A program made the translations under genes and the position numbers. Below are positions 4,089-58,380 of a DNA stretch of 64,000 nt, piece after piece. Source of the stretch: a virus; IMG/VR virus record IMGVR_UViG_3300012005_000004, positions 16,370-80,369 of that record; one strand, 5' to 3'. The number at the start of each line of letters is the position of its first letter. Positions within the stretch are counted from its first letter, which is position 1. Under the pieces are notes generated by a model that was not told the DNA's origin, ran no database searches, and saw only the letters and a list, made by a program, of their open reading frames with translations.

Positions 4089-5354
4089 ATGCAACCAACC
4101 CGTCTAGGTGGAGCTCCAAACCTTCAAGCTCAACCAGCATCACCGCCTGCTGCTGTAGTTGAATCGATGATGCCAGACTTTTTGACGCCAAAGACAGAAC
4201 AATCGGTTATGGTAGCACCAACGATGAGCACATCGATCACATTACCACCAAACTTCCCGGTCACCTTCCCTGAGCAAAAGATGCGGCAGATAGAAGGAGA
4301 TGTCAAGAAGTTTGACTTTGACAAGATCTCGATGCGAGACATTGCCATGATCGGAACCGAGGTCGAGCAGGAGCTTCACAAGACACTTGGTGTCTTCCTA
4401 GCGAAGATCAACCAGGGTGACCAACCAAAGCTGTTCAAGCTTGTTGAAAAGCTCAAGGATGAGGTCGACAAGGAGAACCTTGGTGAGCTTGCTGATAAGA
4501 TTCTCAACGCCCAGCCTGGCATGATCGATAAGCTCAAGGGGATGTTCAGCGCAAAGTCGCTATCAAAGGCGTCCAACAATGCGTTCGAGAACGTTCGGCT
4601 GCTGGCCGCAGGCAAGACCAAGACGCTGACCGAGGTTATCGCCAAGATGGAGCAGGAACTCGCGGTTGAGATGAACCGGCTCGAAGGAGAGGTTAAGAAC
4701 ATGGAGGCGCTTAAGAACGCGTACGTCGATCGCTTCATGGACTATGCCTACTTGACGGTTTACATGATCGGCATCCATGAAAAAGCTCAACAGTACGTTG
4801 CTGCAGTTGAAGCGCAAGGCCAAGTCGATCCTACTTTCCTCAATGACCTTCGGGCTAAGTTTCAAGCTCTGGAAAGCCGTGCATTGACCGTTGAAGGCAT
4901 GATGACGAAGCTGCCTAGTGACCAGCTCGCGATACGTCAGATCCAGAACGCCGGTGTCCAAACGCTCATGGAAACTGCGACGACATCATCGACCAGGTTT
5001 GCTTCGATCAAGATGACGCTGATTAAGATCAACGGTGCGTTGATCGTTCAAGGTGTTCAACGGTTGAGCGCTCAAGGAAAAGCTCTTGATGAAACGCTGC
5101 AAACCGTCGATCGCAAGCTGATGAATGAAGTTGTCACCGTCGCCGCAAACGCTCCTGGAGATAATCGATTGGCTCAAGCCCAACAGCTCCAACAGGTCAT
5201 CGCTGACACCAAAGCGCTCCAGGTGATCGTCGAGCAAGCACGGGTGAAGAACTCCGCACAGTTCCAGCAGGCCCGCGAGATCTTCTCTCAAGCCCGAGCT
5301 GATATGCAGCAGCTTGGAACTACCATCCGCCCAGACCAACCGCTTGGATATTAA
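4089..5354 (+). CDS. TelA/KlaA-like toxic anion resistance protein
   Basis: Long helical coiled-coil, AIRQIQN motif, Ter-cluster context. Confidence 0.7.
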   Translation: MQPTRLGGAPNLQAQPASPPAAVVESMMPDFLTPKTEQSVMVAPTMSTSITLPPNFPVTFPEQKMRQIEGDVKKFDFDKISMRDIAMIGTEVEQELHKTLGVFLAKINQGDQPKLFKLVEKLKDEVDKENLGELADKILNAQPGMIDKLKGMFSAKSLSKASNNAFENVRLLAAGKTKTLTEVIAKMEQELAVEMNRLEGEVKNMEALKNAYVDRFMDYAYLTVYMIGIHEKAQQYVAAVEAQGQVDPTFLNDLRAKFQALESRALTVEGMMTKLPSDQLAIRQIQNAGVQTLMETATTSSTRFASIKMTLIKINGALIVQGVQRLSAQGKALDETLQTVDRKLMNEVVTVAANAPGDNRLAQAQQLQQVIADTKALQVIVEQARVKNSAQFQQAREIFSQARADMQQLGTTIRPDQPLGY

Positions 5355-5356
5355 AG

Positions 5357-5542
5357 ATGACGAAGGAAGAAGTTAAAAAACATCTTGAGAATAATGAAAC
5401 ATTGGGTGGCGGTTCATGGGTATTTTCTAAAAACTGTATGAACTGCGGAGATGGCTGCTGTTATCAAGAATTTAGCGGCGTAGAAGAAGCTCTTGAAAAC
5501 ATAGGATGGTACGTTGATCTTGATGAATTAGAAGTTGTTTGA
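5357..5542 (+). CDS. small Cys-rich hypothetical protein
   Basis: CMNCGDGCC. Confidence 0.55.
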   Translation: MTKEEVKKHLENNETLGGGSWVFSKNCMNCGDGCCYQEFSGVEEALENIGWYVDLDELEVV

Positions 5543-44711: not shown

Positions 44712-46148
44712 ATGAAGACCAACGCAAAGGCAGTAAACAACCGTCGCACCGAAGGTGGTGCACGTGCATCGGCGATCACGCCGGAACAAGAGCTGCGCCG
44801 TCAAGTAATGGCACTGATGCTGTGGGAAAATGGCGGACAGACAGAAAAGAATGTCGCATCGCTGATCCCGAAGTGTCGGCCAGAGTTCGTGGCCGCGTGC
44901 GCGTTCGAAGCTCGCACGAAGATGAAGCTGCGCCACGTTCCGCTGTTCATCGCGCGCGAGATGGCTCGGCACCCAGAGCACAAGTCCCTGGTGGGTAAGT
45001 TGCTGCCTGACCTGATCAACCGTGCCGATGAGATCAATGAGTTCATGGCGATCTACTGGAAGAACGGTAAGACCCCGATCTCGGCGCAAGTCAAGAAGGG
45101 TTTGGCCGCAGCTTTCAAGAAGTTCGGTCCGTATGCGCTGGCGAAGTACAATAAGACCGACATGGCCATCAAGATGCGTGATGTGATGTTCTTGACTCAC
45201 GCTAAGCCTGCCGATGCTCCTGGTGACAAGTACACCAAGGAAGTTCGTAAGGCTGAACGTGCTGGACAAAAGGCTCGTCAGCTGACCAAGGGCGAAAAGC
45301 TGTTCTCGGACTTGATCAATGACAAGCTGGAAACTCCTGACACATGGGAAACCAACCTGTCGGCTGGTGCAGACAAGAAGGAAACGTTTGAACGATTGAT
45401 GTCTGAAAACAAGCTGGGTGCATTGGCATTCATTCGTAACCTGCGGAACATGGTTCAGGCTGGTGTGAGCCGGCAGGCTATGAAGGAGTACGGAGCCAAG
45501 GTAAACTTGGAATACGTGCTGCCGTTCCGGTTCTTGTCAGCAGCTCGTCAAGTTCCAGGAATGGAAGACCTGTTGGAGCCGATGATGTTGCGTTGCCTGG
45601 AAGGTCAACCGAAGCTGCCGGGTAAGACCGTGCTGATTCTCGACACTTCTGGTTCGATGCACGCCGGAATCTCGGGCAAGTCTGACCTGACTCGTTTGGA
45701 CACGGCCGCAGCGCTGGCGATCTTGGTTCGTGAAATTTGCGAAGATGTCGTCATCTACTGTACCGCAGGTTCGGATGGAGCACGTCGTCACGCTACCATG
45801 CAGATCCCAGCACGTCGTGGATTTGCGCTGGCGGATTACATCCGTAGCAATGAAGTTCAAGGCAAGATCGGTGGTGGCGGTATCTTCTTGAAGCAGTGCC
45901 TGGACTTCGTGGAAATGAACGAAAAGACGGCAGACCGCGTGATCACGTTGACCGACGAGATCGACTGCGATGACAAGGCGTCTCCGGAGGGAGCTTCGAC
46001 TTTCGGTGAGAACAACTACATCATCAACGTCGCTACGCAGGCTAACGGTATCGCGTACTCGAAGTTCACGCACATCAACGGTTGGAGCGAAGCTGTAATC
46101 GACTTCATCCGCGTGCTTGAAGAAGACCAAGCGGCTGAATTGCAGTAA
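44712..46148 (+). CDS. rsr: Ro60/Rsr TROVE-vWA RNA-binding protein
   Basis: LAKY, L.TPDTWET.LS, ALAFIRNLRN, LPFRFLSA, vWA DTSGSM, GWSE. Confidence 0.93.
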   Translation: MKTNAKAVNNRRTEGGARASAITPEQELRRQVMALMLWENGGQTEKNVASLIPKCRPEFVAACAFEARTKMKLRHVPLFIAREMARHPEHKSLVGKLLPDLINRADEINEFMAIYWKNGKTPISAQVKKGLAAAFKKFGPYALAKYNKTDMAIKMRDVMFLTHAKPADAPGDKYTKEVRKAERAGQKARQLTKGEKLFSDLINDKLETPDTWETNLSAGADKKETFERLMSENKLGALAFIRNLRNMVQAGVSRQAMKEYGAKVNLEYVLPFRFLSAARQVPGMEDLLEPMMLRCLEGQPKLPGKTVLILDTSGSMHAGISGKSDLTRLDTAAALAILVREICEDVVIYCTAGSDGARRHATMQIPARRGFALADYIRSNEVQGKIGGGGIFLKQCLDFVEMNEKTADRVITLTDEIDCDDKASPEGASTFGENNYIINVATQANGIAYSKFTHINGWSEAVIDFIRVLEEDQAAELQ

Positions 46149-46232: not shown

Positions 46233-46366
46233 GGATGTGTAGCTCAGGTTGGTAGAGCGTCTAGTAGGAAAGCCCGGACGTTGATCCCATGTGGAAGCGC
46301 ATGGAGTAGTCGCGGTGTAGCAAGTACAAATGAAGGTCGCAGGTTCGACGCCTGCCACATCCGCCA
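46233..46366 (+). ncRNA. tRNA-like RNA (134 nt) with anticodon arm replaced by a long hairpin
   Basis: Acceptor GGATGTG/CACATCC+GCCA, D arm GCTC-AGGTTGGTA-GAGC, T arm GCAGG-TTCGACG-CCTGC; about 80 nt between D and T arms. Confidence 0.8.
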
Positions 46367-47861: not shown

Positions 47862-48542
47862 ATGCAAAGACAAGCTTCACGTAGAAAGTATCATTACATT
47901 TACAAGACCATTTGTTTAGTGAGTAACCGATACTACATCGGAATGCATTCTACCGATGATCTTGATGATGGATATGTAGGTTCTGGGAAACGATTATGGC
48001 ATTCAATCCGTAAACATGGGTTAGAAAAACATAAATGTGAAATTTTAGAATTTTTAGATTCAAGAGAAAAACTTAAGATTCGTGAACGAGAGATCGTTAA
48101 TGAAGATTTCCTTAAAGATCCTCAATGCATGAATCTGACGTTGGGTGGTGGGTGTGGATGGGATTATACAAATTCAGTATTAACCGACGAACAAAGAACT
48201 AAAGCTGGAAAAGCTGGTGGATATGCTAATAGAACATTTGAGCAACGATCAGCTGCTGGTAAAATAGGTGGTAAGATTGGAGGAGTACTAACCTGGTTAA
48301 AGAATAGAGAACAAGCTGAAGCATATAGGAAAATAGCTATTAAAATCGCTACATTACCAGAAAACATAGAAAAAAGAAAAATCACCTTTATGAAAATGAA
48401 TCATCAAAAAGGAGAAAAGAATTCTCAATTTGGTACAAAATGGATTCATAATGATGATTTGAAACTTAGTAAAAAGTGCAATAAGAATGATCTATTAGAT
48501 CATTTAGAAAATGGTTGGAAGCTTGGAAGAAAGATAAAATAG
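47862..48542 (+). CDS. GIY-YIG homing endonuclease (Seg-like) in tRNA cluster
   Basis: YIYKTI...YYIGMH, YVGSG, N-L..GG, GEKNSQFGT; AT-rich; TATAAATA upstream. Confidence 0.85.
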   Translation: MQRQASRRKYHYIYKTICLVSNRYYIGMHSTDDLDDGYVGSGKRLWHSIRKHGLEKHKCEILEFLDSREKLKIREREIVNEDFLKDPQCMNLTLGGGCGWDYTNSVLTDEQRTKAGKAGGYANRTFEQRSAAGKIGGKIGGVLTWLKNREQAEAYRKIAIKIATLPENIEKRKITFMKMNHQKGEKNSQFGTKWIHNDDLKLSKKCNKNDLLDHLENGWKLGRKIK

Positions 48543-48619: not shown

Positions 48620-48708
48620 GGAAGTGTATTGTGCCAGGTGGCACAGATGGTTTGCTAAACCATTGGGCTCAGTTAATGGGCCGGGTTCGAGTCCCTGCGC
48701 TTCCGCCA
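48620..48708 (+). tRNA. tRNA-Ser(GCT), 9/3 fold
   Basis: GGAAGTGTA/TGCGCTTCC, D TGTGCC-AGGT-GGCACA, ATGGT-TTGCTAA-ACCAT, GGG-TTCGAGT-CCC, GCCA. Confidence 0.85.
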
Positions 48709-48872: not shown

Positions 48873-48959
48873 GGAAGTTAAACTGCGTAGGACGCAGCGC
48901 TGCCTCGAAAACAGTAGGACTCAGTAATGGGTTGAGTTTCGATTACTCTTTCTTCCGCC
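48873..48959 (+). tRNA. tRNA-Ser(CGA), 8/4 fold
   Basis: D CTGCGT-AGG-ACGCAG, loop CTCGAAA, GAGT-TTCGATT-ACTC; acceptor has two U-U mismatches. Confidence 0.75.
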
Positions 48960-48967
48960 GACCTCAT

Positions 48968-49158: not shown

Positions 49159-49217
49159 GTTGAAATAGTTTTACTTTGTAGTGAAAGCATGGTATAATTT
49201 TCTTTTAGGAGAAAAAC

Positions 49218-49646
49218 ATGTTTGAAGCTTACAATGGCGACAAGGACAAGTTGGTGAAGTTTAATGGAGTAGCAGCTCAAAAGATTCTTGATAAGTTTGC
49301 GAGCTCCAATGTTGTTAGTAACCCAGGTCTTCAAAAATTTACTTTTGATGATTTTAAGGTCGGTGAATTCACAGCATCATTTAGCTACTTCTTCGATCGT
49401 CAAAAAGGAATTGACTTCTTAAAGTGTGGTGACAAGATGTATGTTCATGATCAATGGGTTAAGACAGAAACTTTCTCAGGAGTTCAAGTCTCCATTGGAG
49501 AATCATTTCCTCAACTAGCTGATGATATCAAGAAGGCATTTCCAGATCTTGGATTTAACATCATCTTCATCAAGGAGCTAGGTTTGAGGATGCAAGTTAG
49601 CGCAGGAGAGATCTACAACATCGAACGTTTTAAAGAAATTAAGTAG
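49218..49646 (+). CDS. hypothetical early protein
   Basis: Promoter 49170-49198; AGGAG SD. Confidence 0.7.
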   Translation: MFEAYNGDKDKLVKFNGVAAQKILDKFASSNVVSNPGLQKFTFDDFKVGEFTASFSYFFDRQKGIDFLKCGDKMYVHDQWVKTETFSGVQVSIGESFPQLADDIKKAFPDLGFNIIFIKELGLRMQVSAGEIYNIERFKEIK

Positions 49647-49653
49647 CATTAAT

Positions 49654-49735
49654 GGGATTGTGGCTAATACAAATCGGCACAGTTATCAGGTTTAGAACCT
49701 GAGCCTTTGAGGGTTCGAATCCCTCCAGTCCTACC
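49654..49735 (+). tRNA. tRNA-Leu(TAG), short variable arm
   Basis: TCAGG-TTTAGAA-CCTGA; D region nearly identical to Leu(CAA) at 47423. Confidence 0.85.
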
Positions 49736-50128
49736 GATCACAAAGCTGACCTATCGCTGAGGTGTAAAAATTCTTAGAGAAATCTAAGTTGTAAACCCTT
49801 AGAGGAAAGTCGGGGCTACAAAGAGCAGGGATTGTCGCTCTGTGGAAGTAAGAGGTGTTGATTGAAAACTACCCTGAGGTCTGAAAAGGCAACAGGCTCT
49901 CGCAATCATCACTAGATATCAGATCTGTGTGGTAACAGCACAAACAACCTCGTATCCTCGCTTACGTTATACCACAACGACTCCGTAGCAAGCCAAACAG
50001 GTACCGTTGACGTTGCTGGCCGAGGTACCGGGTTGGTGCAGCCGAAAGGCACGAGGGTGTATGGCAACCCACACCGTCGTAGACGAATGATAGGATAAAA
50101 CAGAACTCCGCTTACGGGCTTTGTGATC
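49736..50128 (+). ncRNA. rnpB: RNase P RNA (bacterial type A-like)
   Basis: P1 GATCACAAAGC/GCTTTGTGATC; GAGGAAAGTCGGGGCT (49802-49817), TAGACGAATGA, ACAGAACTCCGCTTA (50100-50114); P4 pairing retained. Confidence 0.9.
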
Positions 50129-50131
50129 AAT

Positions 50132-50219
50132 ATGTCGACTTAACATGGTCTGAACATGGCCACGGGCAGGTGATACTTCCCGTGGTGTGGGCAATACGTG
50201 GAGGAGCCTTAATCGACAT
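50132..50219 (+). ncRNA. unclassified rod-shaped small RNA candidate
   Basis: ATGTCGA/TCGACAT closing; CCACGGG/CCCGTGG apical stem; GC-rich intergenic. Confidence 0.45.
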
Positions 50220-50275
50220 TTTAGAGTTTACACCTCGATTAAATTGAGATATAATGATTTTTTGAGGAGAACATC

Positions 50276-50618: not shown

Positions 50619-50710
50619 GGAAGAGTTCCCAGGAAGGTTCCTGGTGCTGTTTGGAATACAGTTGCAGTGGTCACAAGCCGCTGACGGATCGACACCGTAC
50701 TTTTCCTCCC
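50619..50710 (+). tRNA. tRNA-Ser(GGA), 8/4 fold
   Basis: GGAAGAGT/ACTTTTCC, D CCAGGA-AGGT-TCCTGG, GCTGT-TTGGAAT-ACAGT, ACGG-ATCGACA-CCGT. Confidence 0.82.
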
Positions 50711-50715
50711 ACAAT

Positions 50716-57754: not shown

Positions 57755-58041
57755 ACAAATACTCAACATCACTTGCAATTTTTGCTCAAGCTCCAGCAAT
57801 GAGTATTGACCAGGAGCTTACCGTTAAGCTTAAGGTTCTGTCGGAACAGAAGGATGATGTGAAATCAGACCAGGTACTTGAGATCCTTGATCTCGGAGCC
57901 AGATATTCAATGATGAGCGAGTTTGCGATGCGGGCTCTTGACGAGCTGTGGTACATAATGATCAAAGATGAAGGTAAGACAGAGGAACAAGCTAGGTTGG
58001 AAGCTGAGCCAAGACGCAAGGCTCATGAGGCTAGCGAATAA
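57751..58041 (+). CDS. hypothetical protein
   Basis: ATGA coupling. Confidence 0.55.
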   Translation: MNKYSTSLAIFAQAPAMSIDQELTVKLKVLSEQKDDVKSDQVLEILDLGARYSMMSEFAMRALDELWYIMIKDEGKTEEQARLEAEPRRKAHEASE

Positions 58042-58049
58042 ATATTAGT

Positions 58050-58380
58050 TCATGATTGTGTGGGAAGGTAACTTCTCGAATGTCAATTTGAATGTAGTTT
58101 GGACAAGGGTTCGATTCCCTTCACCTCCACCGCGTTTTTAAGTTTTTAATGGGGGTGCCCTGGTTTCGACAGGCTAAGCTAGAAGAGAATACAATCCGGT
58201 AGGCGATGACCGTTAATCAAGCAAACGTTTAAATGCAAATGAAGCATTTTTTGGAAAGTTCGCTCTCGTAGCGTAGTTTCCACGAGGTTAACCACCTTGT
58301 CTCCGAACGGTTGAGGGAGCAACGCTCTCTTAGGGGTTTTAGCCGGTAGTCCTATCAACAGAATGAAACCGGCGCCAACG
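58050..58380 (+). ncRNA. ssrA: circularly permuted (two-piece) tmRNA; ends approximate
   Basis: T arm and CACCTCC-ACC (to 58131) precede the 5' end GGGGGTG...TTCGAC (58151); G3-U70 pair; tag ANEAFFGKFALVA* at 58235-58276. Confidence 0.9.

Follow-up and report, generated by a model that had tools for sequence, protein, structure and literature searches.

A phage-encoded RNase P RNA of class A descent with a conserved catalytic core and a remodelled specificity domain

We describe an RNase P RNA gene in a 64,000-nt stretch of viral DNA (hereafter, the window; all positions refer to it), which comprises bases 16370-80369 of the 80,369-bp IMG/VR virus record IMGVR_UViG_3300012005_000004. The analysis confirmed that this gene (49736..50128, + strand, 393 nt) encodes a phage RNase P RNA of class A descent with a conserved catalytic core and a specificity domain (S-domain) that the covariance model cannot align. 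The extent of the type-A-derived gene follows from a full-length match to RF00010 and from the complementarity of P1. The completeness of the record is 22 % (CheckV), which implies a huge phage of several hundred kb.

Results

When Rfam was searched with an E-value threshold, 49738-50130 (+) gave an end-to-end match to RF00010 (bacterial class A), from model position 1 to 367, at 72.9 bits (E 7e-22), which is the best match for this RNA within its clan. The score falls below the RF00010 gathering threshold of 100 bits because the S-domain is unaligned: model positions 74-213 are skipped as local ends, and P18 is likewise left as unaligned sequence. At the gathering threshold, Rfam reports tRNAs and a permuted transfer-messenger RNA (tmRNA) in the whole window and no RNase P RNA. 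Such genes score under the Rfam threshold and are therefore missed by routine annotation. The minimum free energy (MFE) of the gene is -125.9 kcal/mol (z -3.1). A blastn search for the RNA in 50,697 deposited phage records was negative. Among public sequencing runs, the whole stretch is present only in two soil-metagenome DNA runs, from which this DNA may have come, and in no RNA run.

Two blocks within the unaligned middle are common to the window and to a relative in a 385-kb phage contig. Pattern searches with the shared blocks in IMG/VR and metagenome contigs, from which chance matches in coding DNA were discarded, gathered a family of ~35 distinct real RNAs from huge-phage and metagenome contigs (loci are referred to by L numbers; the chance matches in coding DNA left out from the metagenome and genome scans are L098, L115, L121, L138, L139, L140 and L142). 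Relatives score 86, 64 and 37 bits on RF00010, the last value being that of L079. When one genome each of 185,579 prokaryote species was searched with the family motif, a single real match was found in a 3.6-kb contig of a metagenome-assembled genome (MAG), flanked by tRNA genes, and this contig is probably a phage fragment; no cell sampled among these species genomes uses an RNA of the window's family as its own rnpB.

The elements of the catalytic domain, all on the + strand, can be followed through the gene from both ends. P1 is formed by 49736..49746 with 50118-50128, and the stretch 49750..49802 holds the 5' strand of P2 (49750-49755, pairing with 50089-50094) and an enlarged P3 (49757-49802), which has a 22-nt insertion in the Rfam alignment. 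The stretch 49802..49828 holds J3/4 and the 5' strand of P4 (GAGGAAAGUCGGGGC, with a bulged U), the 5' strand of P5 (GCUAC) and the 5' strand of P6 (AGCAG). On the other side, the 3' strand of a stalk described below (CCACAACGACUCC) and the 3' strand of P5 (GUAGC) make up 49972..49989, followed by J5/15, P15, P16, L17 and L15 (49990..50040), with P16 formed by GGUACC at 50000-50005 with 50024-50029, the P6 3' strand UUGCU in L17 at 50013-50017, and L15 (GGGUUGG, with the CCA-binding GGU) at 50030-50036. Then come a GAAA-capped hairpin at the P18 position (50041-50050), an extra hairpin (50051-50080) and J18/2 (AGACGAAUG, 50081-50089), which leads into the P2 3' strand, and finally J2/4 with the P4 3' strand (ACAGAACUCCGCUUAC, 50100-50115).

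Three features of class A are found here. The CR-I and CR-V strands (GAGGAAAGUC ... ACAGAA) flank a P4 in which the bulged U is retained, the 5' strand of this helix lying within 49802-49816 and the 3' strand within 50100-50115; P15, P16 and P17 surround the internal loop with the L15 GGU at 49990-50040; and the P6 pseudoknot links J5/7 with L17, with five of the six pairs in the window. A reading of this DNA from its letters alone (the sequence-only reading) had listed P1, a P4 with a compensating change, a GCAAG-CCAAA-AGG segment and the 3' conserved regions. All of these are in place: the segment lies at 49987-50002 (GCAAGCCAAACAGG, GCAAG-CCAAA-CAGG) and, relative to the type-A consensus, P4 has one C-G pair swapped to G-C and, in addition, one G-C pair weakened to G-U.

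The helices of the core vary in a compensatory manner across the family. Fifteen full-length members, the window among them, give a consensus fold with 65 pairs, 29 of which are compensatory and span P1 (10 of 11 pairs), P3, P4, P5, P15, P16, P18 and the extra hairpin. Compensatory variants are present in P4, P5 (two variants) and P6, the last with three exactly complementary forms (GAGCAG/CUGCUC, GAACAG/CUGUUC and GGACAG/CUGUCC) and a G-U variant in L136, while P15 has five variants and P16 at least eight complementary ones. L15 CGGGUUG is invariant throughout the family. Judged from these patterns of substitution, the RNA is under structural selection and is no relic. A local P5.1-like hairpin (AGAGC/GCUCU) after P5 was also considered and was rejected, since AGAAC cannot pair with GCUCU and the family variation favours P6.

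The middle of the RNA was compared with the type-A S-domain scheme of PMC4919922, in which CR-II and CR-III of the S-domain are among the universally conserved regions of RNase P RNA and contact the tRNA D and T loops. Canonical type-A S-domains from viral contigs, 12 in number, served to build a covariance model of the S-domain alone, which scored 135 and 122 bits on other phage RNase P RNAs and 30 and 29 bits on two shortened ones; neither in the window nor in six family relatives did it report a match. With filters off, the best match in 49700-50170 was a 15-nt hairpin (UGUGGUAACAGCACA, 49928-49942), which aligned with P13 at 5.6 bits (E ~0.03). A string search of 49828-49984 found none of GGTGAAA, GTGAAA, ACAGAAA, ACAGAGA, AGTGC and TAACG, the sole signature string in this interval being GGTAACAG at 49931, which matches the L14 consensus too. 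The motifs of CR-II (J11/12 ACAGARA) and CR-III (J12/13 GGGUGAAA) are absent, and nothing aligns with them in the S-domain model. P8 and P9 are unmatched by this model as well, and the helices of the stalk are only 3 nt (CUC) and 1 nt (A) apart, so that there is no room for them. As to P13/P14, there is one hairpin (49926-49942, loop GGUAACA) with a weak P13 alignment and with GGUAACAG in common with the L14 consensus, and no second hairpin; this hairpin would be the only vestige of the canonical P13/P14. The covariance alignment, which returned the 15-nt hairpin and no standard S-domain, thus bears out two further points of the sequence-only reading, namely that the S-domain is remodelled and that the pair of strands reading the T-loop is missing from the middle of the RNA.

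The domain in this position begins with an invariant stalk. Its 5' strand (GGGAUUGUCGCUCUGUGG, 49828..49845, +) comes directly after P6 and pairs with 49972-49984, giving the helices GGA/UCC, GUCG/CGAC and UGUGG/CCACA with the separators UU, CUC and A, and it occupies the position of P7-P10. The stalk was recovered by single-sequence MFE folding in six of eight folded members and by RNAalifold on two different alignments; P7 as GGAAGU/ACUCC was considered, and MFE folding and RNAalifold recover the extended stalk instead. Three single-base variants are seen in the 3' strand, each of which leads to a G-U pair and lends weak support to the pairing.

Beyond the stalk, a P11-like helix (49846..49852 with 49961-49968) opens into a three-way junction with joints of 1, 1 and 4 nt, from which two lineage-specific arms emerge on the same strand. 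Arm 1, at the P12 position (49854..49912), has a basal helix formed by 49854-49864 and 49903-49912. Next come an internal loop that is conserved (AAAACUAC on one side, CUCUCG on the other) and an inner helix, in which 49873-49876 pairs with 49893-49896, and the arm ends in a hairpin (49879-49890) capped by a GAAA tetraloop. Arm 2 (49915..49956) has a helix X (49915-49919 with 49952-49956) that encloses the hairpin 49926-49942. A local P13-like hairpin (AGAU/AUCU at 49914-49926) was dropped because the long-range helix X has three compensatory pairs. This topology suggests that the P7/P10/P11/P12 stack of type A is retained together with one P13/P14-like hairpin.

The S-domain model was evaluated in the window's subgroup (the window, L079, L104, L106 and L107), for which the alignment is nearly gap-free. 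In this model, 95.8 % of the cells are paired, compared with 37-58 % when the partners are slid, and 19 of the 48 pairs are compensatory, with changes on both sides, a number reached by none of 500 shuffles. Eight such pairs lie in the helices of arm 1 (model helices 4 and 5), eight in those of arm 2 (model helices 6 and 7), and three in the P11-like helix, which covaries in the commoner S-domain type too. A search with the internal-loop signature to enlarge the subgroup returned only L079, the matches in L143 and L144 being chance matches in coding DNA.

Across the family, the two strands of the stalk are 54 to 170 nt apart, and the stretch between them has several unrelated architectures, the commoner S-domain type consisting of a conserved large-loop hairpin (GCCAUAAAGAAAAGGAUGAUAUGGC) and a variable hairpin. 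L104-type RNAs carry the window-type S-domain. L125 is 94.9 % identical to L104 over 1,055 nt and has one clean 105-nt deletion beyond P11, which takes out both arms and leaves a 5-nt loop on P11, with the rest of the RNA retained. In a catalytic-core tree of 140 columns, the window falls together with L038 and L119 (support 98/96), both of which have other S-domain types. Forcing the carriers of the window-type S-domain (L125 included) into one clade was rejected (delta lnL 24, p-AU 7e-4), although paired sites inflate such tests. Within the reach of such a tree, this shows that the distal S-domain changed repeatedly, either by module exchange or by repeated replacement of an ancestral form.

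Some members have peculiarities of their own. In L104, L106, L107 and L125, a promoter-like sequence of the extended -10 type (TGTGATATAAT) lies just upstream of the RNA, and J3/4 reads GAACAAG or GAAGAAG, while nearly all RNase P RNAs have GAGGAAG. The member in L079 (681-1118, -) has a ~75-nt insert between J5/15 and P16 and is otherwise intact. In L093 (~207-714, -), a family RNA is broken at L15, and another RNase P RNA of miniature size, which has a P4, a stalk-like region and an L15 of its own, follows directly; this tandem or chimeric arrangement recurs with the same sequence in L094, L101 and L134.

The RNase P RNA gene lies among tRNA genes. An atypical tRNA-like gene (49654..49735, +; anticodon UAG, oversized D region, canonical T arm), which scores 38.9 bits on the Rfam tRNA model and has no ARAGORN call, abuts its 5' end with no gap. 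A promoter-like site (49170..49198, +; TTTACT, 17 nt, TG-TATAAT), found by consensus scan only, is upstream of the open reading frame (ORF) 49218-49646, the tRNA-like gene and the RNase P RNA. Downstream, a long imperfect hairpin followed by UUUU (50132..50223, +) could be a terminator, and a strong promoter-like site at 50227-50255, identified from its consensus match only, would mark the start of the next unit. In 21 of 29 family loci, there are tRNA genes in the fetched flanks. For instance, the RNA begins 3 nt after a tRNA in L038, and a tRNA begins 4-8 nt after the RNA in L108, L109, L124, L141 and L118; tRNA processing may set the RNase P RNA's own ends. A permuted (two-piece) tmRNA lies ~8 kb downstream of the RNA (58038-58367, +; RF04321 123 bits, beta_tmRNA 116 bits; tag ANEAFFGKFALVA), and in L085, L097, L111, L112, L122 and L136 a tmRNA and the RNase P RNA are no more than a few kb apart. 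The tRNA array, the RNase P RNA and the tmRNA look like a conserved module.

As the sequence-only reading had noted for the window, there is no rnpA: PF00825 (RnpA) has no match in the 80-kb record, nor in two relatives of 385 and 358 kb that are terminally repeated and 100 % complete; the same search was positive in 10 of 10 bacterial control genomes. PHROGs and Pfam scans of the neighbouring ORFs gave no RNase P protein or other candidate cofactor, and among the neighbour proteins across 49 loci none travels with the RNA, with the exception of a homing endonuclease. The CCA end is encoded in 154 of the 168 distinct tRNAs of the family loci (92 %). In the comparison set (L010, L033, L032, L035, L045, L044 and L022), it is encoded in 30 of 33 tRNAs of the two phages with a shortened S-domain (91 %) and in 27 of 88 tRNAs of the phages with canonical S-domains (31 %). 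This contrast fits a heavier reliance on the contact between CCA and L15.

Several other genes were observed in or near these arrays. A GIY-YIG (SegE-like) homing endonuclease gene (47862-48542, +) stands at the head of the window's tRNA array and has homologues in the tRNA arrays of L087 and L079. Further upstream are a TROVE/Ro60-like gene (44712-46148, +; PF05731, E 5e-12) and, after it, a 131-nt RNA (46233-46363, +) that matches the tRNA model end to end at 38.6 bits with a large insertion and would be a Y-RNA-like tRNA chimera. L038, a complete 385-kb phage, has a GOLLD RNA (5070-5488, -; RF02032, 212 bits) in the same tRNA array, ~2 kb from the RNase P RNA.

Most tRNAs of the window have 7/5 branches and UUCGAxU T-loops. 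Among the others, tRNA-Ser(GCU) (48620-48708, +) folds as 9/3 and matches the Rfam tRNA-Sec model at 51.4 bits, and tRNA-Ser(GGA) (50619-50712, +) folds as 8/4, with an 8-bp acceptor stem, a 6-bp D stem, a 4-bp T stem and the T-loop AUCGACA; the MFE structure of the latter makes up 47 % of the ensemble, and the gene is missed by ARAGORN and by Rfam at E 0.01. A weaker candidate (48873-48960, +) starts with GGAAG, has the anticodon CGA and is roughly 8/4, its acceptor stem containing mismatches. Beside the RNA in L091, L092, L118, L087 and L119, the tRNA-Ser genes are 7/5 with canonical T-loops, as is one in L038, and these relatives with ordinary tRNA-Ser neighbours are also without a canonical S-domain. 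RNase P of E. coli is an ordinary type A enzyme. In E. coli, 8/4 and 9/3 allo-tRNAs were reported to be "properly folded, processed, aminoacylated", and phage clusters were seen to contain 8/4 tRNA-Ser (Mukai et al., PMC5389517).

Discussion

Based on the comparisons reported here, it seems rather probable to us that the window encodes a working phage RNase P ribozyme of type-A descent that would operate with host RnpA, select its substrates through the catalytic domain and carry replaceable arms. What the data show is the homology, the intactness of the core, the covariation, a secondary structure for the new S-domain and how this domain turns over between relatives, and the lack of rnpA in the sequences searched; that the RNA is catalytically active, uses host RnpA, relies on CCA and is co-transcribed, and what its biological purpose is, we infer from sequence. 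The RNA would probably be co-transcribed with the phage tRNA genes and released from that precursor. Since its catalytic domain appears complete (P1-P6, P15-P17 with the L15 loop, J3/4, J5/15, J18/2 and J2/4), the RNA would be expected to cut 5' leaders off pre-tRNAs, and it would probably act on the phage tmRNA precursor as well. In this context, it is relevant that pre-tRNA is cleaved by the C-domain on its own, if more slowly and with lower affinity (PMC4919922). Because no RnpA was found in the record or in the two complete relatives, RnpA would most likely be borrowed from the host. Substrate choice would lie mainly with the catalytic domain, through the acceptor stem, the pairing of the 3'-CCA with L15 and the leader bound by RnpA, and the arms, instead of reading special tRNAs, would be a module for folding or stabilisation that can be replaced.

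Several observations weigh against this model. The pairs of the stalk never vary, so that covariation is uninformative about them and the pairing is unproven, and their strict conservation hints at a sequence-specific role that the model does not explain. Similarly, the conserved internal loop of arm 1 and the GGUAACA loop suggest specific contacts, which is awkward for arms that are merely replaceable. The window-type S-domain represents three independent lineages only, and its model was derived from those same sequences. P6 of the window has one mismatch, leaving the five of six pairs. The record is ~22 % complete, so the phage could encode a cofactor elsewhere, and the CCA contrast may reflect host lineage and not the type of RNase P.

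A more far-reaching proposal, which we consider somewhat unlikely, is that these RNAs embody a second solution to substrate recognition, in which the invariant stalk and exchangeable arms replace the T-loop reader formed by CR-II/CR-III, and the phage RNA with host RnpA selects by a different rule. If so, selection could depend on nothing but CCA and the acceptor stem, or else on a new contact through the stalk or the GGUAACA loop, and host precursors could rank behind the phage's CCA-encoding tRNA, tmRNA and tRNA-like transcripts during infection.

The sequence-only reading had proposed that the S-domain is tuned to the phage's non-canonical tRNAs or, as may be the case, to other substrates. 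In the first form, the remodelled domain would be a dedicated reader of unusual tRNAs (the 8/4 and 9/3 allo-tRNA-Ser, the AUCGACA T-loop, the odd tRNA-like genes) that the host enzyme handles poorly. The allo-tRNAs do lie near the gene, one of them has A for U at the first T-loop position, and the conserved arm loops (GGUAACA and the arm 1 internal loop) would fit specific contacts. However, the proposal found no support in the other data and we regard it as unlikely: relatives without a canonical S-domain adjoin ordinary 7/5 tRNA-Ser genes, the fetched flanks of L079 and L104 have, according to ARAGORN, standard-length tRNAs only and no tRNA-Ser, the majority of the window's tRNAs are canonical, allo-tRNAs still have an acceptor/T branch of 12 bp and were reported to undergo processing in E. 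coli (PMC5389517), and L125 has lost both arms. Strict conservation of the stalk in ~35 RNAs, including block C, which was outside the metagenome search pattern, could instead point to an unrecognised phage protein that is non-homologous to RnpA, binds the stalk and supplies the missing S-domain functions. Huge phages encode many proteins of unknown function, and five of eight scanned neighbouring ORFs (142, 112, 181, 125 and 413 aa) are without a significant Pfam match; yet, no neighbour protein co-occurs with the RNA in the 49 loci and no candidate was identified, and the invariance of stalk block A comes partly from the design of the search, which makes such a partner quite unlikely in our opinion.

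It is also conceivable, but quite improbable, that the main job of the RNA is something other than bulk tRNA maturation. It would then act on other phage RNAs, such as the permuted tmRNA precursor or the tRNA-like and Y-like RNAs by the Ro60 gene, or serve as a decoy for host RnpA that disables host tRNA maturation. The co-occurrence of a tmRNA in the window and six loci, the presence of the Ro60/TROVE gene and tRNA-like RNAs 3-5 kb upstream, and the looser substrate choice expected when T-loop reading is missing are in line with this idea. By contrast, the position of the gene within tRNA arrays or beside tRNAs at most loci speaks for tRNA maturation, the invariant L15 and the 92 % of neighbouring tRNAs that encode CCA both point to tRNA-like substrates, and a pure decoy would not need an intact P4 or core strands under compensatory evolution. 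Finally, a score below the Rfam threshold, an unrecognisable S-domain and the P6 mismatch in the window are what a decaying, functionless relic of a captured host rnpB might display. We consider this very improbable, given that in ~35 relatives each core helix shows compensatory changes and the catalytic strands do not vary, that the new S-domain itself covaries, and that this type of RNA occurs in no cellular genome of those searched.

Few ribozymes are universal, and RNase P RNA is one of them. Outside subscription-only papers, we found no description of a phage-encoded RNase P RNA in the literature, and the main huge-phage paper mentions tmRNA and not RNase P. A selectively maintained bacterial-type RNase P RNA without CR-II and CR-III would offer a ready system for asking how far recognition needs a T-loop reader. 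The family provides dozens of natural variants, from a bare hairpin cap to 170-nt modules, with the catalytic features all retained. The window RNA would also bear on whether a viral RNA subunit can use a host protein subunit, and on why huge phages carry a tRNA-maturation enzyme beside tRNA arrays and a tmRNA.

Compared with class A RNase P RNA (RF00010; E. coli M1 RNA/rnpB; the T. maritima P RNA, PDB 3Q1Q/3Q1R), the window RNA is similar in size and shares P1-P5, the P6 pseudoknot, P15-P16-P17 with the L15 GGU, the J3/4, J5/15, J18/2 and J2/4 strands and the bulged U of P4, as well as a P7/P10/P11-like stack, an arm at the P12 position and, less clearly, one hairpin resembling L13/L14 (GGUAACAG). 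It differs from class A in that it scores below the RF00010 cut-off, has no P8/P9, CR-II (ACAGARA) or CR-III (GGGUGAAA), has an invariant stalk of different sequence for P7-P10 and an extra hairpin after the P18 position, and is phage-encoded with no rnpA partner gene found in the record. RNase P RNAs of class B (RF00011) have P5.1, P10.1 and P15.1 and lack P6, P16 and P17; a class B identity was ruled out, since P6, P16 and P17 are present in the window RNA.

Seven other phage contigs of 100-463 kb encode RNase P RNAs within dense tRNA arrays, with scores of 167-308 bits: five (L022, L035, L032, L045 and L044) score 259-308 bits and have RNAs of 340-365 nt with canonical S-domains, L010 scores 208 bits and L033 167 bits. 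Like the window RNA, these huge-phage RNAs are of type-A descent and are phage-encoded within tRNA arrays. Unlike it, they retain P8 and P9 and the signatures of J11/12 and J12/13, and the shortened ones among them are no exception. For instance, the shortened RNA of L033 has kept P8, P9, AACAGAGA and GGCUGAAA and has lost P13/P14, which is the reverse of the pattern in the window.

The absence of a canonical S-domain is shared with the minimal RNase P RNA of Pyrobaculum (type P in PMC4919922; type T, Rfam RF02357; Lai et al. 2010), and L125 and L096 approach this S-domain-less state. The Pyrobaculum RNA, however, comes from an archaeon, has several archaeal protein partners and is almost devoid of an S-domain, whereas the window RNA has the bacterial P6 and L15 GGU and a 157-nt structured replacement domain. 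The latter domain, together with a bacterial model as the best match in the clan, rules out a Pyrobaculum-type identity.

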